Assembly: GCA_030648285.1 (NCBI GenBank)
Contig: JAUSIC010000010.1
Location: 1 to 50,631 of the forward strand
Direction: 5' to 3'
Length of the DNA stretch: 50,631 bases
Source: Nanobdellota archaeon
Lineage (GTDB): Archaea > Nanobdellota > Nanobdellia > Pacearchaeales > GW2011-AR1
Shown: positions 3,910 through 48,965 of the stretch, one piece after another
Layout of the letters: each line of letters opens with the position of its first letter
How positions within the stretch are numbered: position 1 is the first letter of the stretch
The notes under the pieces: model-generated
What the model was told of the DNA's origin: nothing
Database searches by the model: none
What the model saw: only the letters and a program-made list of their open reading frames with translations
Made by a program: the position numbers and the translations under genes

Positions 3910-4667
3910 CTTGTTTTGAAATCAAAATTTAATTCTTTGAGTTTAACTTCTACCTGTGTCTTTTTAGAGAATTCTATGCCCAAATCGATTGATCTTATAT
4001 AATAACTTTCAATATTCTTAATTATTTTTTTACATTGATTAATCACCTGTATTAAATCGAAAGATTTTTTAGAACTCTTTTTAGAGAAAAAAGCGAAGAC
4101 ATGCCCTCCATTATTCCAATTAGAATCTTTTTTAACATATTTTATTTTAAAATCATTTGTTTCTCCTATATCTTTCCAAGGAGGTTCAAAGTTGTAATCC
4201 AACCAAATCATCACTTCTATATCATTTTTAGTTAATTCCCCCTTTTTATTTTTCGTTAGCCAAATATCATATGTAAAATTTGCCAAACCTTTGACTTGAA
4301 ATTCCCATTTAGTCGAAATATTCATTCCAGTGTATTTTTTTACTTGTCCTAACTCAAATCCATTTGTTGGCCCCCAAATACTTTCTCCGAGTCTTATAGA
4401 AGGATAACCTGCGATAAAGTTCTGAATTTCTATATCAGCACACTTAATTGAAAAATCTAAATAATTTTTCTTTTCTTCAATTTTTCCAAGAATATTTTTT
4501 TCTATTCTATCTTCCCTATTTTTTATCCCCCATGTATTAATTAATGCTGAAAGTATAGGGATATAAGATTTATTATTAACTTTTAACTTTACAAATTTAG
4601 AATAACCATAGCCAACTTCAAATTTTGAACCCTCTACTTTTATTAAATTTAATCCTTGGTACTGCAT
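3906..4667 (-). CDS. GH12-like (concanavalin-fold endoglucanase-like) protein
   Basis: YDIWL, IEVMIWLDY (compare GH12 nucleophile motif E[LIV]MIW) and SIDLGIEFS (compare GH12 acid/base motif GTE) occur in the GH12 order. No signal peptide seen. Its stop overlaps the ligase start by 4 nt. Confidence 0.55.
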   Translation of the reverse strand: MQYQGLNLIKVEGSKFEVGYGYSKFVKLKVNNKSYIPILSALINTWGIKNREDRIEKNILGKIEEKKNYLDFSIKCADIEIQNFIAGYPSIRLGESIWGPTNGFELGQVKKYTGMNISTKWEFQVKGLANFTYDIWLTKNKKGELTKNDIEVMIWLDYNFEPPWKDIGETNDFKIKYVKKDSNWNNGGHVFAFFSKKSSKKSFDLIQVINQCKKIIKNIESYYIRSIDLGIEFSKKTQVEVKLKELNFDFKTR

Positions 4668-4705
4668 AAATAGATTAATAATGAGAAGTTTTTAATTGTT
4701 TTTAA

Positions 4706-5287
4706 CTAATAGGATTCTACAAATAATTCATAGAATGCTTGAGGATGCTTGCAAGCAGGACATTTCTCAGGAGCTTCTTTTCCTTCATGAACATAACCAC
4801 AATTTCTGCATTTCCATTTTACTGAATGAGATTTCTTAAAAACTTCTTTGTTTTTTAAATTCTGGAGAAGTTTTCTATATCTTTTTTCGTGCTGCTCTTC
4901 AACTTCTGCAATTTCCTTGAAACTTTCTGCAATTTCCTTGAATCCTTCCTCTCTTGCAACTTTTTCAAAATCAGGATAAATTCTTCCCCATTCTGCTTTT
5001 TCTCCGTTTGCAGCAGCAAGAAGACTTTCTTCTGTTGTTCCAATTTTTCCAGCAGGATATTCTGCTGTTATTCCAACAAGTTCTCCTTCACTTTGATTTA
5101 GATGTTTAAAGAAGATTTTTGCATGTTCTTTTTCATTGTCTGCTGTTTCCAAAAAGATTCCAGAAATTTGTTCAAAGCCTTCTTTTCTTGCTACAGATGA
5201 AAAATAAGTATAACGATTTCTTGCTTGGCTTTCTCCTGCAAATGCCTTCAAAAGATTTTTTTCTGTTTCACTTCCTCTTAATTTCAT
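4706..5287 (-). CDS. rbr: rubrerythrin
   Basis: ETEKNLLKAFAGESQARNRYTYF...NEKEHAKIF diiron four-helix motifs plus C-terminal rubredoxin-like CRNCGY...CPAC. Confidence 0.95.
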   Translation of the reverse strand: MKLRGSETEKNLLKAFAGESQARNRYTYFSSVARKEGFEQISGIFLETADNEKEHAKIFFKHLNQSEGELVGITAEYPAGKIGTTEESLLAAANGEKAEWGRIYPDFEKVAREEGFKEIAESFKEIAEVEEQHEKRYRKLLQNLKNKEVFKKSHSVKWKCRNCGYVHEGKEAPEKCPACKHPQAFYELFVESY

Positions 5288-5364
5288 ATTTATCTTAAAG
5301 AAAGATAGTTTAAATAATTTAGGGATAGATAAAAATATATAACCTTCTTTTATTGAACATAATT

Positions 5365-5925
5365 ATGTCTAAGACAAAAATACCTAATAAATTAAGAGCT
5401 GAGATTTTAAATCGTGATAGTAATAAATGTTTATGGTGTGGGCGAGATATATTAGAGGGTATTAAATTAGAAGTAGATCATATCCAAGCAGAAAGTTTTG
5501 GAGGTTTAACTACTCAAGAAAATCTTGGAACTTTATGCAACGAGTGTAATAATGGTAAGAACAATAATTATTATGGAAATTATTTGTTAATGACTTTAAT
5601 AAAAATTCCAAATTTTGAAAATAGAATTTGTTTCGAAATACTTAAGGAAGGAAATGCTTTTGATAATACAAAATTCAGATATTTTTTAACTTTCTTTAAA
5701 AAGAATAAAGATAATTATTATAGATTAGAATCTATTTATCAAGATTTTGAGGTTGAGGGGGAATTAGGTTACATTGATAAAAGTAATTCTGCGATGATAC
5801 AATTAGATTTAGCTAAAAAAGAAAACTTACTTAAATTTAAAAATAAAATTAGAGATTTCTTAATAGATAATAAAGGTTACTTAGAAGAATTAAATGGAAG
5901 AATAATTTTTCAAGAGAAAAAATAA
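5365..5925 (+). CDS. HNH endonuclease domain protein with uncharacterised C-terminal domain
   Basis: CLWCGR...EVDHIQAESFGGLTTQENLGTLCNECNNGKNN (HNH/ββα-Me). The ATG at 5365 lies ~25 nt after the TATA-like aaaaatatataa; the ORF track starts at a TTG at 5353. Confidence 0.75.
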   Translation: MSKTKIPNKLRAEILNRDSNKCLWCGRDILEGIKLEVDHIQAESFGGLTTQENLGTLCNECNNGKNNNYYGNYLLMTLIKIPNFENRICFEILKEGNAFDNTKFRYFLTFFKKNKDNYYRLESIYQDFEVEGELGYIDKSNSAMIQLDLAKKENLLKFKNKIRDFLIDNKGYLEELNGRIIFQEKK

Positions 5926-6441
5926 TTATCTTCTGAATGCAAATGATTTTTTTCCTGCACTTGTCAATCCTCTCAATGCTCTTTTCTTGTTTGCAGGATT
6001 AAGCATCCAGCTAAAATTCTTGTCATTCTTTATTTCTGGCTTGCTTGTATCTATACAAATTACTTCATAGAAATAATTCATCCCGTCTTTTCCTATTTGA
6101 TATGAATTTAAAATTTCAAGATTTTTGTATCTATGTGCAACTCTTTGCTCTGCAATTTCCTTGTAATTTAACTGAAGATTTTTTCTTGTATGAAGTCTCT
6201 TGCTTCTTCTTCCTTTGTTTGGACGAGTTCTTTTATGTCCTCCTCTCATTATTCTGACTCTTATTACTATGACTCCTTTCTTGTCTTTGTAACCAAGAGC
6301 TCTTGCTCTGTCTAATCTTAAAGGCTTGTCAACTTTTGTGAAAACTCCAGATTTTCTCCATCCAATCATTCTTTGTCTTAATGTTTTTACATCTGGTTTT
6401 TTCCATGCTTGCTTGATATAATGATACATTCCTTGTGCCAT
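5926..6441 (-). CDS. rpl15e: 50S ribosomal protein L15e
   Basis: N-terminus MAQGMYHYIKQAWKKP and basic RGGHKRTRPNKGRRSKR core typical of L15e. Confidence 0.9.
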   Translation of the reverse strand: MAQGMYHYIKQAWKKPDVKTLRQRMIGWRKSGVFTKVDKPLRLDRARALGYKDKKGVIVIRVRIMRGGHKRTRPNKGRRSKRLHTRKNLQLNYKEIAEQRVAHRYKNLEILNSYQIGKDGMNYFYEVICIDTSKPEIKNDKNFSWMLNPANKKRALRGLTSAGKKSFAFRR

Positions 6442-11134: not shown

Positions 11135-12214
11135 ATGCTTGGAATTGAAAAGTGGAGAAAAGAAATACCTCTTATGCGAGTGGCTATTCTTGGGGATTTT
11201 TATTTAGATAGAAATAATGTTAATATGCTTATTGGAAGAAATTCTTTAGAACATGAAATAGTTCCCATAAGATTTTCTACAAACGAAGAAACAGAGTATG
11301 CTCCTGGGGGAGCGGGAAATGTTGCTGTTAATTTTAAGAAACTTGGAGTTGAGGTTGTGCCTTTTGGTGTTATTGGAATAGATCATAGAAGTAAGCAATT
11401 AGTGGAACTACTCGAGCATCTTGGAATATCTACTGAAGGTTTGATTGTTGACACTGGAAGAATAACTCCTTCTTATGAAAAATTTCATTTAGAAACAGAT
11501 GCAAAAGTTCAAGATTATAGATTAGATACACCTATTAAAAGAGAACCTAGTCCCTCAAGCCAACAGAGATTGCTTGAAAAATTAGCAGATAACTATACTA
11601 TTGGAAGGATAAATGCTGTTTATATTGCAGACCAAACTCCAACAAGCAATTATCCATGCATTACGCTAGGGTTGAGAAAAGGAATTCGAGAATCATTAAT
11701 TTCTGAAAAAGAGAGGAGAAAAGGAGAAGATTTCCATGTTATGGTTGATTCAAGAGAAAGAATAAGAGACTGGGCAAATGGCAAATTTATTTTAAAACCA
11801 AATCAAAGAGAAATTTGGAGAGAATACAGGAATGAAGAAGAAATAATAACAAATTCAATTTTTAAGGCTGAATCAATGAGATATATTTTTGAACAAGAGG
11901 TTAAAAAACTTTATTCTGATACCCCTATGTTTGTTACACTTCATGATAAAGGAGCTGCTTTATTCCAGAAAGGTTTTCAATCAGAATATATACCCACATT
12001 ATCTGTTAAAGATGGAGACCCTACGGGGTGTGGAGATGCTTTTGGTACAGCTGCACTTACTGCGTTGAGTGTTGGAGAAAGTTTTAATCAAGCAGGAAGG
12101 TTTGGAAATTCTGCTGCTTATCATACAATACAACAAATGGGAATGTGTGGAATGCCTAATTTGGAAGAATTATTTAAAAACTACCAACACATATATGGTT
12201 CATGGGCAAAATAG
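11135..12214 (+). CDS. PfkB-family sugar kinase, HldE/RfaE domain-I-like
   Basis: VAILGDFYLDR...APGGAGNVAVNFKKLG resembles RfaE domain I. C-terminal PfkB motif DPTGCGDAFGTAAL. Confidence 0.8.
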   Translation: MLGIEKWRKEIPLMRVAILGDFYLDRNNVNMLIGRNSLEHEIVPIRFSTNEETEYAPGGAGNVAVNFKKLGVEVVPFGVIGIDHRSKQLVELLEHLGISTEGLIVDTGRITPSYEKFHLETDAKVQDYRLDTPIKREPSPSSQQRLLEKLADNYTIGRINAVYIADQTPTSNYPCITLGLRKGIRESLISEKERRKGEDFHVMVDSRERIRDWANGKFILKPNQREIWREYRNEEEIITNSIFKAESMRYIFEQEVKKLYSDTPMFVTLHDKGAALFQKGFQSEYIPTLSVKDGDPTGCGDAFGTAALTALSVGESFNQAGRFGNSAAYHTIQQMGMCGMPNLEELFKNYQHIYGSWAK

Positions 12215-12263
12215 GAAATTTTCCCCAAAATACAAAATTGGTTAGGAAGTATTTTGCATAATG
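12214..12263 (+). promoter_or_regulatory. L-motif 5' leader, copy A
   Basis: ggaaattttccccaaaatacaaaattggttaggaagtattttgcataATG. Arms aatacaaaat/attttgcata enclose a GGAAGT loop, and the ATG directly follows. Confidence 0.6.
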
Positions 12264-15158: not shown

Positions 15159-15314
15159 TTAAGATTTAATAACTAAACCAAGAGCAATTCTAAAAACCAG
15201 AATTAAAGCTATAAAGATTAACACATGAACTGGTTTTAAACTGAATCTGCTTTTGTAACTTTCTTTGAATCTAACCAAGCCTCCCATTCCAGAAGGCATG
15301 CTTTGTTCTGCCAT
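15159..15314 (-). CDS. secG: preprotein translocase subunit Sec61β (archaeal SecG)
   Basis: MAEQSMPSGMGGLVRFKESY...KPVHVLIFIALILVF has a single C-terminal TM. The start is set at the ATG that ends the L-motif; the ORF-track extension to 15425 reads through the leader (MEVFCIM). Confidence 0.8.
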   Translation of the reverse strand: MAEQSMPSGMGGLVRFKESYKSRFSLKPVHVLIFIALILVFRIALGLVIKS

Positions 15315-15368
15315 TATGCAAAATACCTCCATGCCAATTTTGTATTTGTGCTGAACGTTAGTTCTGCC
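15312..15368 (-). promoter_or_regulatory. L-motif 5' leader, copy B
   Basis: Reverse strand reads ggcagaactaacgttcagcacaaatacaaaattggcatggaggtattttgcataATG, 51/57 identical to copy D. TATA ctttttatac lies 25 nt upstream. Confidence 0.7.
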
Positions 15369-15423
15369 ATATGAAAATTTTATGTTTGGGGAGTATAAAA
15401 AGTTTGCTGATGAGAAGTTTTTC

Positions 15424-18445: not shown

Positions 18446-19537
18446 ATGTCTAAATACACTAAAATTGAACTTGAAGATTTGATGAAAGAGCTGGAAAGTC
18501 ATAAGGGGAAACATACAGAATTAATTACTGTTTACATTTCTTCTGGATATGACCCCAATTCTGTTCAAAAACAGCTTGAAGGAGAAAAATCTACCGCAAA
18601 GAACATTAAATCAACTACGACAAGAAATAATGTAACAGATGCTCTTGATAAAATAATAAGATATCTTAAACCCTTGAAAAAAGTTCCTGATAATGGACTG
18701 GCTTTATTTTGTGGAAACATAAGTCCTGTTGAAGGACAGCAAGATTTGCAACTATGGGATGTTGAACCCCCTCTTGCATTGAGAACAAGATTATACAGAT
18801 GTGACAAAGATTTTGTTCTTGAACCTCTTAGAGAGATGCTTGAAGTTGATGAGGTTTTTGGCTTGCTAGTTATGGATAGAAAAGAAGCAGCAATAGGCAT
18901 GCTTGAAGGAAAAAGAATTGTTTTATTGCAGAAAATGACTTCTGGTATTCCAGGCAAAGTCAAGGCAGGAGGACAAAGCGCTGCTCGTTTTAGTCGTGTT
19001 ACAGAGGGATTAACAAAAGAATTTTACAAGAGAATTGCAGAAGAAATGAAAACTATTTTTTTTGAAATGCCTAAACTAAAAGGAATCTTAGTTGGTGGAC
19101 CTGTTCCTACAAAAGATGAATTTATTGATGGAGAATATTTAACAAGAAAACTTCTTGACAAAGTTCTTGGAAGAGTTGATATTGGAGATAGTGATGAATC
19201 CGGATTAAAAGAACTTGTTGCAAGAGCAGGAGATATCTTGGCAAGCCAGGAAATAACTTATGAAAAAAATGTTCTTGCGAAATTTTTTGAAACTCTTGGA
19301 GAAAGAAGAGATTTAGCAACTCTTAAAGAAAAGGATACTATGAAGGCTTTGGAGATGGGTGCTGTTGGAACTTTGTTTTTATCAAGAGAAGCTGACAAAG
19401 CAATTTCCAATAAGTTAAAAGAAATGGCAGAAAACACAGGAGCTAAAGTGGAAATAATTTCAATAGAGACAGAAGAGGGACAGCAGTTCAATAATCTTGG
19501 CGGAATTGGTGCTATTTTGAGGTTTAGGACAGGGTAA
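18446..19537 (+). CDS. prf1: peptide chain release factor aRF1
   Basis: NIKS motif (TAKNIKSTTTRNN) and GGQ motif (KAGGQSAARF). Confidence 0.95.
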   Translation: MSKYTKIELEDLMKELESHKGKHTELITVYISSGYDPNSVQKQLEGEKSTAKNIKSTTTRNNVTDALDKIIRYLKPLKKVPDNGLALFCGNISPVEGQQDLQLWDVEPPLALRTRLYRCDKDFVLEPLREMLEVDEVFGLLVMDRKEAAIGMLEGKRIVLLQKMTSGIPGKVKAGGQSAARFSRVTEGLTKEFYKRIAEEMKTIFFEMPKLKGILVGGPVPTKDEFIDGEYLTRKLLDKVLGRVDIGDSDESGLKELVARAGDILASQEITYEKNVLAKFFETLGERRDLATLKEKDTMKALEMGAVGTLFLSREADKAISNKLKEMAENTGAKVEIISIETEEGQQFNNLGGIGAILRFRTG

Positions 19538-21490: not shown

Positions 21491-21501
21491 GAATGAAAAA
21501 T

Positions 21502-21601
21502 AGAAAATTTTTCATAAATACAAAATTGGCAAAGAGGTATTTTGCATAATGAACAAACAAGAAATTTGCCACAAATACAAAATGGGAGATTTTGCATGAT
21601 G
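21502..21601 (+). promoter_or_regulatory. Tandem L-motif leaders (copies C1 and C2) with a 16-codon uORF
   Basis: C1 is agaaaatttttcataaatacaaaattggcaaagaggtattttgcataATG. C2 is gaaatttgccacaaatacaaaatgggagattttgcATGATG. The C1 ATG (21549) opens MNKQEICHKYKMGDFA*, whose TGA (21597-21599) overlaps the ATGATG of the main ORF. Confidence 0.65.
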
Positions 21602-23166: not shown

Positions 23167-23234
23167 AGCGGGAAAAATCATTTAACTTTTTAAAAAGATA
23201 AGGTTTATAAATTGATTTTCTGATTTCTTTATAT

Positions 23235-23291
23235 GACAGAACTAAAGTTCAGCACAAATACAAAATTGGTTGAGAGGTATTTTGCATAATG
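23235..23291 (+). promoter_or_regulatory. L-motif 5' leader, copy D
   Basis: gacagaactaaagttcagcacaaatacaaaattggttgagaggtattttgcataATG. TATA ggtttataaatt lies 23 nt upstream. Confidence 0.7.
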
Positions 23292-23552
23292 GAAGTTGAA
23301 ATTCTTGAAAGTTCAAAGAATGAAATTAAAGCAAAAGTTGAGAATATAACTTTAGCAGAAATTCTTAGAGTTTATCTAAACAAAGATTCTAGCGTAAGTT
23401 TTGTAGCTTGGAAAAGAGAACATCCTACCGAAAAACCTATTCTTTTAGTAAAAACAAAGGGAAAAACAGCAAAAAAGGCGATTGATGATGCTGTTGATGA
23501 AATAACAAAAGACTTGGACAAGGTTGAAGAATCATTCAAAAAACTTAAGTGA
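23289..23552 (+). CDS. rpoL: DNA-directed RNA polymerase subunit L (Rpo11)
   Basis: 87 aa; ...ITLAEILRVYLNKDSSVSFVAWKREHPTEKPILLVKTKG has the Rpo11/RpoL pattern. Confidence 0.8.
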   Translation: MEVEILESSKNEIKAKVENITLAEILRVYLNKDSSVSFVAWKREHPTEKPILLVKTKGKTAKKAIDDAVDEITKDLDKVEESFKKLK

Positions 23553-23601: not shown

Positions 23602-26600
23602 ATGAGGGGCGAAATGAAAAAATTGAGGTTAGGAGTTATATTATTATTTGGATTATTTCTTTTTTTAATCGGTTTTGTATCTTTTATCAATCGTGTTAAT
23701 ATTACTTCTTTTGTAATAGATGTTCCTACAAATATTACTACAGAATCTCAGCAGCATTCCTGGCTTGGAAATAAAACAATTCAATCTGCAGAGCTAGATT
23801 CTACTCACAACTTAATTTATTTCGTGGGAGGTAATGGATTATTTGGGTTTTATAATATTACATCAAATACTACAACAGATTTAAGTGGAACAGATAACGA
23901 AAATTGGATTGGAAATCAAGAAATTAGAAGCTTGGCTGTTGATTCTACAAATGATTTAGTTTATCTTTTGGGGTATAAATATACTTGTGGTAGTGTACTA
24001 GGAAACAATTTATTCGGAGTGTACAATAGGACATCAAATATAACTGAGAATTTGAATACAACAGATAATGGAGACTGGTTAGGTCCAAATCCGCAAATTG
24101 GAGGTATTGTTGTTGATTCTTCCACTCATCTTGCTTACTTTAGAGGGATTAGTGGTTTTTTTGGGGTTTATAATAGAACTTCCAATACTTCAGAGAATTT
24201 GAATGTAACACTTAATGGATTTACTGGATCATTATGCGAGATTATTATTAATCAGAATAATAATCTTATTTATTTAGGGGGGGGTAATGGAGCATTTGGA
24301 GCATATAATAGAACTTCTAATGTTACAGAGAACCTGACTATGACTTCTTCTTTCCCAAATTTTGGTGCTCGTAATATATTATCTTTTTGCATTGATTCTA
24401 GTAATAATCTTATTTATTTAACAGGTTCGGGGGCAGGAGTTTCTACTTTATTTTCAGTTTATAATGTATCAAAAAATGTAACTGAAAACTTAAACATGAC
24501 GGGAGATGTAATCCCTTCTGCTCAAGGGTCAATGAATGATTGTGTTTTTGATTCGAATAATAAATTGGTTTATATAATAGGTGCTTGGTCTGCATTTGGA
24601 GTTTATAATAGAACTTCAAATACAACAGAAAATCTAAACAAGACAGATACAGGAAATTGGATCGGGGCAATTACAAATAATCTAGTTTTTGATTCTAATA
24701 GAAGTTTAATTTATTTATCGAGTAATACCAATTCATATGAATTCGGAGTTTATAATAGAACATCAAATGTAACAGAAAATTTGAATGATAGTGATACTGG
24801 AGACTGGCTTGGGACTAATGATGTTAATGAAGTAATATTTAATTCAAATAACAAACTTCTTTATTTTGTTGGAACAAACGGAGTATTTGGTGCTTATAAT
24901 AGGACATTAAATAAATCAGATGATTTAAACCTTCCAAATGATTGGTTTAGATTTAATGCTGTTAAAACAATAGTTTTTAATTCCTTAAATAACTTAATTT
25001 ATTTAGGAGGAGTTAATGGCAGATTTGGAACTTATAATTATAGTTTAAATGAAAAACAAGATTTGAGAAATACAGATCCTTCAGGTTGCTTTTATTCTAA
25101 AACAATTTCAGAAATGACTCATGATTCTACTAATAATCTTATTTATCTTGCCGGCAGCAGTTTTTTATGTTCTTTTAATATAAGTTCCAATATTACAGAA
25201 GATTTAAGACATGTAGATGGTACTGATTTGATAGTCGATGTAGGGATTTCTTCTTTAACTTTTGATACCCTAAATAGTCTTGTTTATTACAATCGTGGAA
25301 CCACTAGTTCTGGTTTTTTTTCTTATAATGTATCTGCGAATACGACAGAAAATTTAGCCCAGACAGATTCTGGGGGATGGCTCACAACTGTTACAAATGA
25401 CATGACTTTTGACAGCACAAACAACCTTATCTATCTTGTTGGAAATACAGGACAATTTGGAGTCTATAATGTTTCTAAGAATGAAACTGAGAACTTAAAT
25501 AAGACAGATAGTGATGATTGGATTAAAACTACAAATCTTCTTGGTGTTACTTATGATTCTAGTAATAGACTTATTTATTTAGATGGAGCAAATGGTGCTT
25601 TTGGTGTTTATAACAGAGATTCAAATCAGACAGAAAATTTAAATTTGACTGATACTGGAAATTGGGTTAACAATTTAGCATTGAATGAGATAACTTTTGA
25701 TAATAATAGCAATCTTGTTTATTTTGTTGGATATTTTGGAGCATTCGGAGTTTATAATAGAACATCTAATGTAACTGAAGATTTGAGAGGAACAGATTCT
25801 GGAGATTGGATTGGTAATACAACATTAAACATAGTATCTTATAGTTCAAGAAATAATCTTGTTTATATTGGTGGAGAAGTAGGTTTATTCGGAGTTTATA
25901 ATAGAACATCTAATTCAACAACAGAAGCAGCATCAGTAGTGGGAGAAGTTACTTCTCCCAGAGGAAGTTCTTCACCTCCATCTCAAACAACAATAATACC
26001 CTCAATAACTCTAGGAACACCAGCTATTATTGAAATAACAAGTTCATCCTCAAGTATAAGAACAATTAAAATAAATGCGAAGAATAATATGTCCAATGTT
26101 ACTCTAACACTTTCTAGAACAAATATTTCTGATGCTGATTTTCAAGTTATTGCAGGAGGAAGAAGAGGAGAATCTTATGAAGCTTATAACATAAATTTTA
26201 CAGGAAACAATTCAGATATTGCGAATGTAACAATAGGCTTTAGAGTAAACAAAACATGGTTGATTAAAACAGGATTTACAACTTCTAATATTGCTCTTTA
26301 TAGAGAACTTACAAATTCCACGAGATGGAAAACTCTTGCAACTACTTTTTTGTCTGAAGATTTAGTTTATTATTACTTTTCAGCTGTTTCTCCTGGATTT
26401 TCAAAATTCTTAATTTTTATAGGAGAAGACGAATGCATTCCTGCTGAAAAAAGATGCGTTGAAAACGAAGTTCAATTCTGTTTGGGAAACAAGAAATGGT
26501 TAGTAAGTGAAGTTTGCGATTACAAATGTGTTAATGGAGCTTGTGTTGAAAAAGGATTGCAAGTAAATCTTAATCCTTTAGTTGTTTATCCTATAATTGG

Positions 26601-26715
26601 AATTGTTGTTGTTGGAATTTTGATTTCTTTTTTAGTGCAGAGAATGCCTAAGAGGAAGAAGGATATGACTACACATTCTATCTCTAATTATTTTAGAAGA
26701 ATTGGAAAGAGATAA
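23602..26715 (+). CDS. giant repeat-rich, sequon-rich surface protein (YVTN-like β-propeller repeats, PGF-pre-PGF-like domain, Cys-rich module, C-terminal TM anchor)
   Basis: N-terminal signal/TM (LRLGVILLFGLFLFLIGFV). About 15 units of ~45 aa: DSxNNLIYLxGxNGxFGVYNRTSNxTENLNxTDxGxW. Then a ...SPGFSKFLIF block, CIPAEKRCVENEVQFCLGNKKWLVSEVCDYKCVNGAC, the TM PIIGIVVVGILISFLV and a basic tail. Confidence 0.9.
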   Translation: MRGEMKKLRLGVILLFGLFLFLIGFVSFINRVNITSFVIDVPTNITTESQQHSWLGNKTIQSAELDSTHNLIYFVGGNGLFGFYNITSNTTTDLSGTDNENWIGNQEIRSLAVDSTNDLVYLLGYKYTCGSVLGNNLFGVYNRTSNITENLNTTDNGDWLGPNPQIGGIVVDSSTHLAYFRGISGFFGVYNRTSNTSENLNVTLNGFTGSLCEIIINQNNNLIYLGGGNGAFGAYNRTSNVTENLTMTSSFPNFGARNILSFCIDSSNNLIYLTGSGAGVSTLFSVYNVSKNVTENLNMTGDVIPSAQGSMNDCVFDSNNKLVYIIGAWSAFGVYNRTSNTTENLNKTDTGNWIGAITNNLVFDSNRSLIYLSSNTNSYEFGVYNRTSNVTENLNDSDTGDWLGTNDVNEVIFNSNNKLLYFVGTNGVFGAYNRTLNKSDDLNLPNDWFRFNAVKTIVFNSLNNLIYLGGVNGRFGTYNYSLNEKQDLRNTDPSGCFYSKTISEMTHDSTNNLIYLAGSSFLCSFNISSNITEDLRHVDGTDLIVDVGISSLTFDTLNSLVYYNRGTTSSGFFSYNVSANTTENLAQTDSGGWLTTVTNDMTFDSTNNLIYLVGNTGQFGVYNVSKNETENLNKTDSDDWIKTTNLLGVTYDSSNRLIYLDGANGAFGVYNRDSNQTENLNLTDTGNWVNNLALNEITFDNNSNLVYFVGYFGAFGVYNRTSNVTEDLRGTDSGDWIGNTTLNIVSYSSRNNLVYIGGEVGLFGVYNRTSNSTTEAASVVGEVTSPRGSSSPPSQTTIIPSITLGTPAIIEITSSSSSIRTIKINAKNNMSNVTLTLSRTNISDADFQVIAGGRRGESYEAYNINFTGNNSDIANVTIGFRVNKTWLIKTGFTTSNIALYRELTNSTRWKTLATTFLSEDLVYYYFSAVSPGFSKFLIFIGEDECIPAEKRCVENEVQFCLGNKKWLVSEVCDYKCVNGACVEKGLQVNLNPLVVYPIIGIVVVGILISFLVQRMPKRKKDMTTHSISNYFRRIGKR

Positions 26716-27943: not shown

Positions 27944-28000
27944 TGATGACTGATTAGTGATTATACAATAATATAAACTTTTGATATTTTCCTTCTTAAT

Positions 28001-28060
28001 GACAGAAATAGGAAATTTCAGCACAAATACAAAATCGGCATGGAGGTATTTTGCATAATG
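28001..28060 (+). promoter_or_regulatory. L-motif 5' leader, copy E
   Basis: gacagaaataggaaatttcagcacaaatacaaaatcggcatggaggtattttgcataATG. TATA aataatataaac lies 23 nt upstream. Confidence 0.7.
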
Positions 28061-48758: not shown

Positions 48759-48789
48759 GAGGGAATTGAGGAAATGATAAATGAGCAAA

Positions 48790-48832
48790 TAGTAAATTTG
48801 CCACAAATATAAAATAGGAAATTTTACATATA
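48790..48832 (+). promoter_or_regulatory. decayed L-motif copy F (no start codon)
   Basis: atagtaaatttgccacaaatataaaataggaaattttacatatag aligns to copy C2 (gaaatttgccacaaatacaaaatgggagattttgcatgatg). The ATG is lost. Confidence 0.5.
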
Positions 48833-48965
48833 GAATAATTGAAGCCTTTTGTAAATGTTGAGCAGTTGAACAAAATCGTTTTAAACTTAACCAGAGTATC
48901 TAGGTTATCATTATTATCCATTTTGCGAGTTTACGAGCAACTAATAAACAATAATTTTATAAAAA
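48830..48965 (+). repeat. Intergenic repeat family R, copy R4 (carries blocks of both subfamilies)
   Basis: atagaataattgaagccttttgtaaatgttg...aaaatcgttttaaacttaaccagag...tatctaggttatcattattatcc...gcgagtttacgagcaactaat...aattttataaaa. Confidence 0.65.

Follow-up and report, generated by a model that had tools for sequence, protein, structure and literature searches.

A putative and probably mobile, hairpin-bearing leader mini-cistron gained and lost at the start codons of unrelated genes in DPANN archaea

What are the closest described counterparts of a very short open reading frame (ORF) that ends on the start codon of the gene behind it? The bicistronic design (BCD) of synthetic biology, said to go back in its original form to Mutalik et al. 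in 2013, sets a short fore-cistron ahead of a second cistron, with the Shine–Dalgarno (SD) motif of the latter embedded in the former and the stop of one overlapping the start of the other. An engineered leaderless version in Corynebacterium glutamicum, with the fore-cistron ATG at the 5' end of the transcript, needs both translation of the fore-cistron and the SD (PMC10367133). Among gene pairs of Haloferax volcanii and Escherichia coli, overlaps of −1 or −4 go with strict termination–reinitiation coupling, the coupling decays within ~20 nt of spacing, and a short 3' part of the upstream ORF is enough for it (Huber et al. 2019, PMC6728339; Huber et al. 2023, PMC10666635). Mycobacteria carry leaderless short ORFs at the head of polycistronic mRNAs; they affect the genes behind them, some by codon content, as polycysteine attenuators (PMC4633059; bioRxiv 10.1101/834739). 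Rickettsia palindromic elements (RPEs), finally, are ~150-bp repeats inserted in frame inside genes, where they give rise to fusion proteins (reviewed in PMC10969869). Here we describe an archaeal cassette of 50–62 nt that combines a leader mini-cistron with a small palindromic repeat; both are known kinds, and we did not find the combination described. It was studied in a 50,631-nt stretch of a Nanobdellota archaeon (GenBank assembly GCA_030648285.1, contig JAUSIC010000010.1, positions 1–50,631; "the window" below means this whole stretch), where one copy precedes rpoL. With moderate confidence, we read the cassette as a leader mini-cistron that is gained and lost at start codons, is probably mobile, and would drive the downstream gene through a leaderless start, a displayed SD, and termination–reinitiation.

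In front of rpoL (23289..23552, +; RNA polymerase subunit L; Pfam RNA_pol_L_2, E 4.7e-13), the covariance-model match to the cassette spans 23233–23291 (+), with the sequence ATGACAGAACTAAAGTTCAGCACAAATACAAAATTGGTTGAGAGGTATTTTGCA-TAA-TG. A mini-ORF encoding MTELKFSTNTKLVERYFA runs from 23233 to 23289, its TAA stop (23287–23289) sharing its last A with the rpoL ATG, so that the stop/start junction is a TAATG at 23287..23291 (+), a −1 overlap. The TATA box TTTATAAA of the unit (23204..23211, +) starts 29 nt before the upstream ATG. Within the mini-ORF, hairpin 1 (23237..23252, +) consists of CAGAAC / TAAA / GTTCAG, with 6 bp and one A·A mismatch. Hairpin 2 (23258..23287, +) has the arms ATACAAAAT (23258–23266) and ATTTTGCAT (23279–23287), again with a mismatch—a conserved A·C—and its 12-nt loop (23267–23278, +) carries an SD-like GAGAGG at 23272–23277. 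This is the general layout of the cassette: an ATG, a hairpin of 5–6 bp, a short linker, an A/U-rich hairpin of 9 bp, and a closing ...GCA-TAA. Every intact copy in the window opens with its own ATG, 2 bases 5' of a GRCAGAA motif, and holds a mini-ORF of 16–19 codons that ends in a TAA or TGA sharing its final A with the gene's ATG. A first-pass annotation of the window had recognized the repeat as a two-hairpin leader beginning at GRCAGAA; the motif is there, and its true start lies 2 nt further 5', at the ATG.

How many copies does the window hold? A core pattern, AAATNNAAAATN{0,9}GRRGN{0,4}ATTTTNNATRATG, gave six matches in this 30% G+C sequence compared with none in 100 dinucleotide-preserving shuffles, and a covariance model run with filters off returned exactly seven copies, six intact and one relic, at 48–70 bits, the runner-up scoring 20 bits. 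Between them, pattern and model recovered all the copies listed in the first-pass annotation. One (12202..12263, +; 52.6 bits; mini-ORF MGKIGNFPQNTKLVRKYFA; TATA-like ATTTAAAAA at 12172–12180, +) precedes a tRNA-binding-domain gene (Pfam tRNA_bind) and overlaps the 3' end of the PfkB-family gene upstream, whose final codons and TAG stop fall within the cassette, the stop in the loop of hairpin 1. Another (15312..15370, −; 54.9 bits; mini-ORF MAELTFSTNTKLAWRYFA; TATA-like TTTTATAC at 15393–15400, −) stands before sec61-beta (sec61b), the Pfam match of which to Sec61_beta is weak (E 0.0045, under the curated cut-off). Two copies form a tandem pair on the plus strand. The upstream member (21493..21551; model match 21492–21551, the cassette proper starting from its ATG at 21493) encodes MKNRKFFINTKLAKRYFA, and its TAATG supplies the ATG of the mini-ORF MNKQEICHKYKMGDFA in the downstream member (21549..21601; 69.9 bits), which is of a short-loop type and joins a membrane-protein gene via TGATG; that gene has no Pfam match. 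The last intact copy (27999..28060, +; 60 bits; mini-ORF MTEIGNFSTNTKSAWRYFA; TATA-like AATATAAA at 27970–27977, +) precedes an Nre-family gene (Pfam Nre_N/C). The relic (48781..48833, +; 57 bits), with a U–A variant of hairpin 2, carries a TAG within the hairpin-1 loop, ends in TATAG in place of TAATG, and has no ORF following on its strand. Between the rpoL and sec61b copies, 51 of 57 positions agree, as had been reported, and other pairs in the window are 66–87% identical; the genes behind the copies (RNA_pol_L_2, the weak Sec61_beta, Nre_N/C, tRNA_bind, and the membrane protein) are indeed unrelated.

Are these cassettes fixed companions of the genes they precede? We compared nine syntenic genomes: the window and eight loci of relatives fetched via homologues of its valyl-tRNA synthetase (ValRS), which are 91% (L139 and L143), 86% (L140), and 73–75% (L141, L142, L144, L145, and L146) identical to the window protein. 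Six orthologous sites—rpoL, Nre, tRNA-binding, membrane-protein, sec61b, and prf1—are filled in some genomes and exactly empty in others. At rpoL, four relatives (L140, L141, L142, and L144) are empty and read TTTATAAA, 24–25 nt, and ATGGAA; in the window, that promoter and spacer are followed by 56 nt of cassette and then by ATGGAA; and L145 carries a different cassette subtype at the same point. The Nre site, filled in the window, is empty in L140 and L144 behind a recognizably orthologous promoter. The window alone is filled at the tRNA-binding site (empty in L139, L140, L142, L143, L144, and L145), and L142 alone at prf1. Where the window has two cassettes before the membrane-protein gene, L144 has one, orthologous to the downstream member, and L139, L141, and L142 have none (..GGAGATAAT-ATG..). 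The sec61b site is filled by three different variants in the window, L140, and L145 and empty in L139, L143, L141, and L144, of which L139 and L143 are the closest relatives of the window. Copies of an 86-nt variant occur at nonorthologous sites, prf1 in L142 and sec61b in L145, with ~5 differences between them as counted by eye. Copy density varies as well, from seven in the 50 kb of the window to five in ~150 kb of relatives. The membrane-gene copy shared by the window and L144 is 86% identical between them, while the gene next to it has only 48% identity at third codon positions, so that copies, once fixed, are constrained or else homogenized by conversion; one compensatory pair change separates these two orthologous copies. 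Of the three functions suggested earlier for the repeat, a mobile promoter–leader cassette comes closest. The promoter, however, is not part of it, because empty sites in relatives keep the same promoter.

What happens at the joints? Filled sites read ..ATG, element, ..TA-ATG.. and empty sites ..ATG.., from which an ATG duplicated on insertion and one carried by the element are indistinguishable. The ends themselves, ATG(A/G)NNAAA... and ...TTTTGCATA, are only loosely alike when the 5' end is set against the complement of the 3' end. At sec61b, the first 10 nt of the mini-ORF (ATGGCAGAAC, 15361–15370, −) equal the gene's own first 10 nt (15305–15314, −), and in L140 and L144 the ancestral start of Nre (ATGTCAGACAT) looks like the cassette's 5' end (ATGACAGAAAT); these resemblances may reflect insertion microhomology or coincidence. 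Like RPEs and prokaryotic transposable elements of the miniature inverted-repeat kind (MITEs), the cassette is small, multicopy, palindromic, nonautonomous, and compatible with translation, and it lives in reduced, gene-dense genomes. It shares with MITEs the multicopy presence/absence polymorphism and lacks their terminal inverted repeats. Unlike RPEs, it measures 50–62 nt, has its own stop and a frame different from that of the gene, and forms a separate cistron at the start codon to which it supplies translation signals.

How far does the family extend? The window ValRS is 67–91% identical to proteins of metagenome-assembled genomes (MAGs) of Candidatus Pacearchaeota and Nanoarchaeota, and an exact-core scan of species-representative genomes picked up seven loci, every one in front of a different gene and holding an ATG-to-TAATG mini-ORF; the MAGs concerned bear the names Nanoarchaeota, Pacearchaeota, Woesearchaeota, and Nanoarchaeia. 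A metagenome scan in which the G–C pair and the mismatch position were degenerate gave at least 120 loci, about half of them true copies once AT-rich noise had been filtered by loop content and downstream ORF. In viral contigs, the 11 loci hit by the degenerate pattern were without exception chance matches in AT-rich sequence, and none was followed by an ORF. A covariance model applied to the collected loci raised the count to at least 92 copies (84 distinct), among them diverged ones beyond the reach of the pattern; the family-wide fractions below (of 84 or 69) refer to distinct copies in these loci. The junction is TAATG in 77 of the 84 and TGATG in one. All of the first 13 copies examined (13/13) are open from the ATG to a stop overlapping the main ATG, and fore-cistrons across the family run to 10–35 codons. 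Every intact copy with a downstream ORF lies 5' of the gene, overlaps its start codon, and points the same way. Tandem doublets or triplets occur in at least 10 loci, and a 12.6-kb ribosomal-protein cluster (L138) holds at least five copies. In one of these (L138:8922-8973), the ORF of an upstream ABC-transporter ATPase runs through the cassette and stops at its TAATG, so that the cassette forms the last ~17 residues of the ATPase and joins two operon genes.

Cassettes also accrete further small hairpins, and most such modules preserve the frame: a module of 42 nt inside hairpin 1 is present or absent at one orthologous site, and another, of 33 nt, occupies the loop of hairpin 2 (CAGCT-AAAA-AGCTG and GCAAC-AGAA-GTTGC). 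The loci concerned are L051:5468-5562 compared with L043:2769-2818, L142:12750-12835 and L145:9804-9889, and L138:4030-4172.

Do the genes behind the cassette have anything in common? Their 52 nonredundant protein products match 59 Pfam families, with one protein each among the 25 families listed; the range takes in ribosomal proteins L13, S13, S8e, S11, and L18 as well as SecY, aIF2-gamma, eRF1, GAPDH, RNase PH, SerRS, and Nre. The element could in principle be a structured, untranslated 5' leader of a cis-regulatory regulon, bound by a protein, a small RNA, or a ligand, and the first-pass annotation had taken it to mark a distinct subset of genes. The highly conserved nucleotide sequence, the covarying structure, and the fixed position relative to the start codon speak for such a leader. 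This diversity of downstream families, with no shared family or pathway, does not, nor does the fact that orthologues in relatives at 75–91% ValRS identity mostly lack the element. There is wide variation in occupancy and copy number, the element forms an ORF that stays in frame, and no off state is obvious, because the SD lies in a loop and is not sequestered. We therefore set the notion of a marked gene subset aside and regard a regulon leader as most improbable. Rfam has no match either: at the gathering threshold, Rfam 15 found two tRNAs and nothing else in the whole window, and the rpoL copy with its flanks, searched at E up to 10, drew chance matches of 11–19 bits compared with gathering scores of 45–80. 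The first pass, which did not recognize a described archaeal RNA motif here, agrees with Rfam, and full-text literature searches (uORFs, SD, and leaderless genes in DPANN archaea; the core sequences; DPANN MITEs and repeats) found no description of the element. Of seven long-form mini-ORF peptides searched against a collection of 15 billion proteins, one was present, unnamed; public gene calls thus all but lack the mini-ORFs.

Is the mini-ORF where a gene of this genome would be expected to start? For rpoL, Nre, and the tRNA-binding gene, 29 nt separate the start of the TATA box from the mini-ORF ATG; for sec61b, the figure is 30 nt. Ordinary gene starts in the window have a TATA at −28/−29 in 27 of 55 cases under a strict pattern, and several more with looser boxes; most window genes have no SD and a TATA-to-ATG distance of 28–29 nt, which makes the genome predominantly leaderless, in agreement with the geometry noted in the first pass. 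Among window genes, hardly any but those that bear a cassette have strong GGAG/GAGG motifs upstream. Across the family, the mini-ORF always comes with a start signal of its own: 25 copies have a TATA at −27 to −31, 20 have an SD, and 10 follow another cassette. As the first pass had also proposed, TATA spacing would put the start of the transcript at the 5' edge of the element. From the mini-ORF ATG at this predicted position, we infer that what begins there is a leaderless mini-cistron and not a UTR. The further suggestion of an untranslated leader or operator accordingly fails on the ORF itself, which runs from the ATG before GRCAGAA to the TAATG with its frame kept across indels.

This geometry invites comparison with the described systems. 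Like the BCD, the cassette has a short fore-cistron with the SD of the second cistron embedded in it and a stop that overlaps the start; the TATA spacing of the 25 copies, which is that of ordinary genes, would further align it with the leaderless variant, where the fore-cistron ATG is at the transcript 5' end. Unlike the engineered design, it is natural and archaeal, has two covarying hairpins, and appears to spread within and between genomes. It resembles coupled gene pairs in its codirectional ORFs, its −1 overlap (TAATG or TGATG), and the downstream SD inside the upstream ORF; coupling, putative in our case, would here involve an unusual upstream partner, a repeated hairpin mini-cistron that is multicopy and missing from orthologous sites of relatives. 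As with the leaderless short ORFs of mycobacteria, unannotated mini-ORFs precede downstream genes, although the mycobacterial ones are locus-specific and share no sequence, whereas the cassette is repeated, structured, and insertion-polymorphic.

How well supported are the two hairpins? Pairs were counted on an alignment fitted to the covariance model (alignment A3), since MAFFT misaligns hairpin 1 owing to indels. In it, 88% of cells are standard-paired compared with 77% in shuffles, a count that overstates independent events because copies share ancestry; 9 of 14 pairs have changed on both sides, and none of 500 shuffles matched the observed covariation. Shifting the partners by one to three columns lowers pairing to 31–50%. 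Hairpin 1 is variable yet complementary (GCAAA/TTTGC, CTGAA/TTCAG, AAAAA/TTTTT, GTTGAA/TTCAAC), its first pair being CG in 29, GC in 19, AU in 10, and UA in 6 copies and its third AU in 38 and GC in 35. In hairpin 2, the single G–C pair is CG in 60 distinct copies, UA in 15, and AU in 6, on several hairpin-1 backgrounds; the loop-closing U–A has become C–G in five copies, and the second pair has changed from T–A to C–G in L144. One subfamily has lost the C–G pair on both sides and gained a pair at the loop end (ATAAAAATT/AATTTTCAT). The pattern scans had fixed most stem positions, so that diversity there comes only from the ~20 extra copies found by the model. Compensatory changes in this alignment thus back both of the hairpins drawn in the first pass, with amendments: the CAGAAC/GTTCAG stem of the rpoL and sec61b copies stands, although its pairing is imperfect around the A·A mismatch, which many hairpin-1 stems have, and the arms and loop of hairpin 2 stand with an A·C mismatch that is retained in 81 of 84 distinct copies. 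A long-range pairing seen in some minimum-free-energy folds (5'-GCAGAA/UUUUGC-3') is not conserved across subfamilies and was dropped. Bulge–helix–bulge splice sites and K-turns were set aside on inspection of the sequence, as were integron attC sites, since the R''/R' boxes do not fit and the genes here are syntenic housekeeping genes.

The SD-like motif lies in the loop of hairpin 2 and not in its stem, as had been noted, with the main ATG 1–2 nt past the 3' arm. Motif content and spacing bear this out over the family: 57 of the 84 copies have GGAG or GAGG 9–12 nt before the main ATG, and 20 more have a weaker purine core. An SD in the loop and an ATG beyond the 3' arm fit neither an RNA thermometer nor an SD-sequestering riboswitch.

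If the element is translated, is it the peptide or the passage of the ribosome that matters? How the conserved core AAATACAAAAT is read depends on core length: K-Y-K in copies where it is 29 or 35 nt, N-T-K in copies where it is 30 or 36 nt. The head, from the ATG to the core, measures 24 nt in the first group and 23 or 26 nt in the second. Because head length tracks core length, two separate indel sites compensate for each other. By hand count, 11 of 15 head/core length combinations are in frame (binomial tail P = 0.0018), the out-of-frame combinations being singletons. Fifty-six of the 69 distinct copies whose stop overlaps the start are in frame, and 54 are free of internal stops; another five, scored as out of frame, are long variants whose frame is correct when read from the true ATG. 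An upstream ORF is present in 54–61 of the 69. Tested on distinct total lengths alone, frame keeping is not significant (8/17, P = 0.17), in part through internal ATGs of long variants. The six nested-insertion variants, as read from their peptides, add 33, 42, 42, 45, 45, and 48 nt, all multiples of three. The same nucleotides yield ..KYKIGDFA-stop or ..NTKSGDFA-stop, and because one core is read in two frames, conservation is at the nucleotide and not the peptide level. Loop codons vary freely, stops included (CAG, CAA, CAT, TAT, TAG, TAA). Judged from these comparisons of sequence, it is putative translation through the element to the junction that is favored, and amino-acid sequence is not.

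A working peptide is accordingly very doubtful, whether as an arrest or sensor leader peptide or as a small trans-acting protein, with a C terminus of ..(G)DFA-stop or ..RYFA-stop controlling the junction. Its attraction is that the last three or four residues are nearly constant (D/N/Y-F-A/T), always followed by the stop, in a frame that is kept. Yet it is the 3' arm of hairpin 2 that encodes this constant C terminus, and it covaries with the 5' arm (GCA to ACA with TAC to TAT), which explains the constancy at the level of nucleotides; the conserved core is read in two frames (KYK and NTK), and the loop codons are free to vary even to stops. There are also no regulatory codon runs and no terminator/antiterminator alternatives; with a core in two frames, no terminator, and the SD in a loop, the element does not resemble a leader-peptide attenuator. 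We give next to no credence to programmed −1 frameshifting on the U-UUU run of hairpin 2, by which the gene would acquire an N-terminal extension. The main frame is indeed −1 to the mini-ORF, and a step of one base backward could let tRNA-Phe pair again on T-TTT. Against this, there is no canonical X XXY YYZ heptamer, the slip site is inside a hairpin with no stimulatory structure downstream of it, variants in other frames exist, and the ATGs of the main ORFs align with the N termini of orthologues.

Drawing on the anatomy, the covariation, the kept frame, the promoter geometry, and the filled and empty sites, we propose how the cassette may work. It would occupy the exact place of the gene's former start codon, 29 nt 3' of the start of the TATA box. 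Transcription would begin from or beside the cassette ATG, and the mini-ORF would be initiated leaderless, as most genes here would be. The ribosome would then read 16–19 codons, melting both weak hairpins on its way; the mini-ORF peptide itself is probably irrelevant. On termination at UAAUG, a small subunit held by the SD 9–12 nt upstream would re-initiate on the gene. In operons and tandem arrays, the mini-ORF would itself owe its start to an SD or to the TAATG ahead of it. With its SD on display in a loop, the cassette probably permits some direct initiation as well, which would explain the tolerance of copies with early stops. As to spread, start-codon gain and loss over short evolutionary distances, tandem arrays, and subfamilies point to nonautonomous mobile or duplicative behavior. 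The element would be built so that insertion preserves expression of the recipient gene, and insertions that survive before essential genes would be those that keep all of 5'-terminal ATG, open frame, SD, and overlapping stop; in a gene-dense leaderless genome, such a survival filter may explain why insertion looks so precise.

Several observations weigh against this leader mini-cistron model. Some copies have a stop in the hairpin-1 loop (L079, L046, L114, and L043) or a shifted frame (L118, L135, and L084) and still precede an apparently intact gene. Full-length translation of the mini-ORF is therefore not indispensable, and dependence of downstream on upstream translation, read from such copies, may be partial. 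The SD–ATG spacing of 9–12 nt is somewhat long, and the conserved A·C mismatch has no explained role in the mechanism. Single-sequence folds are weak, with nonsignificant z-scores of −0.3 to −2.5, and RNAalifold on an unfitted alignment returns just the 6-bp core of hairpin 2 at −1.5 kcal/mol; the structural evidence is for this reason covariation and not folding energy. Alignment A3 is itself fitted to the model, and its covariation may come partly from a few ancestral events inherited by subfamilies. On the side of mobility, the ambiguous ATG is the only sign of a target duplication, neither the window nor the genes called in the L139–L146 loci include a transposase, and we found no terminal inverted repeats, the inverted repeats being internal, in two separate hairpins.

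Could the cassette then be purely selfish DNA, in which the hairpins are single-stranded DNA signals for a transposase encoded elsewhere, the ATG, ORF, SD, and TAATG are mere tolerance features by which start-codon insertions survive in a gene-dense genome, and RNA structure plays no part in expression? The models would be MITEs, repetitive extragenic palindromes (REPs), or derivatives of IS200/IS605 insertion sequences. REPs have a conserved GTAG head and lie mostly 3' of genes, and REPs and bacterial interspersed mosaic elements (BIMEs) are mobilized by REP-associated tyrosine transposases (RAYTs); IS200/IS605 elements insert beside a defined tetra- or pentanucleotide and excise precisely, without target duplication; and imperfect palindromes with mismatches occur in REPs and at IS200/IS605 ends. 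The cassette shares with both groups its short imperfect palindromes and tandem clusters, and precise excision of the IS200/IS605 kind would fit the exact empty sites. Several of our results suit this alternative: the patchy occupancy of orthologous sites that are either filled or exactly empty, the strong differences in copy density among close relatives, the frequency of tandem arrays and nested insertions, the same 86-nt variant at different genes in different genomes, the apparently precise loss from sec61b in some lineages, the mismatches conserved in both stems, and the lack of a G·U excess that would mark the sense strand as RNA. On this last point, G·U intermediates are too rare to tell RNA from single-stranded DNA folding, and the G·U versus A·C asymmetry is uninformative. 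Unlike REPs and BIMEs, however, the cassette has no 5' GTAG and always stands immediately 5' of a gene; unlike IS200/IS605, it has no defined tetra- or pentanucleotide target, none at all besides the ATG, and no Y1/HUH transposase is found at the examined loci. The want of a transposase and of terminal inverted repeats counts against this alternative too. Moreover, intact copies with a downstream ORF all point the gene's way, the fixed orthologous copy is conserved far above neutral sites with a compensatory change in place, and the hairpin-2 loop is held to an SD at fixed spacing, which a DNA-only signal would not need. Selfish DNA pure and simple thus seems unlikely; it shares mobility with the leader mini-cistron model and differs from it only on whether the RNA features work. 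A more far-reaching version of that model, which we hold tentatively and at rather less than even confidence, is that the family forms a new class of archaeal mobile element: a transposase-less, translated start-codon cassette of ~55 nt with precise insertion and excision at leaderless ATGs.

The neighborhood of the cassettes is itself variable. Between metG and the tRNA-binding gene, the window has a PfkB-family kinase gene (11135-12214), as do L140 and probably L143; L139, L142, and L144 have no PfkB-family gene at this position. In L145, the interval holds a reverse-transcriptase gene (L145:6502-7578; RVT_1, 358 aa) just behind two unannotated ORFs (4541-5401 and 5398-6096), where other genomes have nothing or the PfkB gene; this locus may be a diversity-generating retroelement or another retroelement. 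The prf1 gene, for eRF1, contains inteins in L140 (12848-14347, 499 aa) and L145 (12401-14785, 794 aa), with Intein_splicing matches and, in L145, LAGLIDADG as well; prf1 of the window (18446-19537, 363 aa) is intein-free. Directly after rpoL, the window has a 1,037-aa ORF without a Pfam match (23602-26715), L141 and L144 have NosD/beta-helix proteins (766 and 1,006 aa), and L140 and L142 go straight to a RadA-like gene; the position is a variable slot, probably one for a surface protein. Just downstream of Nre, L140 alone among the relatives carries a gene pair for a ParE-like toxin and a DUF7557 protein (L140:21312-21798).

What would such a cassette mean for these archaea? Unannotated as it is, it leads to misreading of gene starts, 5' ends, and small-ORF content in Pacearchaeota and Nanoarchaeota genomes. 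Many housekeeping genes are affected, among them the ones encoding ribosomal proteins, SecY, aIF2-gamma, eRF1, and RNA polymerase subunits. It would be the natural counterpart of the engineered leaderless bicistronic design, a compact module for initiation, portable enough that one could try it out as a genetic part. Its dozens of natural variants, together with filled and empty alleles of the same gene, offer a comparison of leaderless, SD-led, and reinitiation modes in archaea. If mobile, the cassette is a selfish repeat that poses as a leader cistron and so persists where a reduced genome leaves hardly any intergenic space, which raises the questions of what moves it and why it lands exactly on start codons. 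And if the family does form a new class of element, each insertion would switch a housekeeping gene from leaderless to SD- and reinitiation-based initiation without inactivating it, and the cassette would be the main source of SD-led initiation in these genomes.

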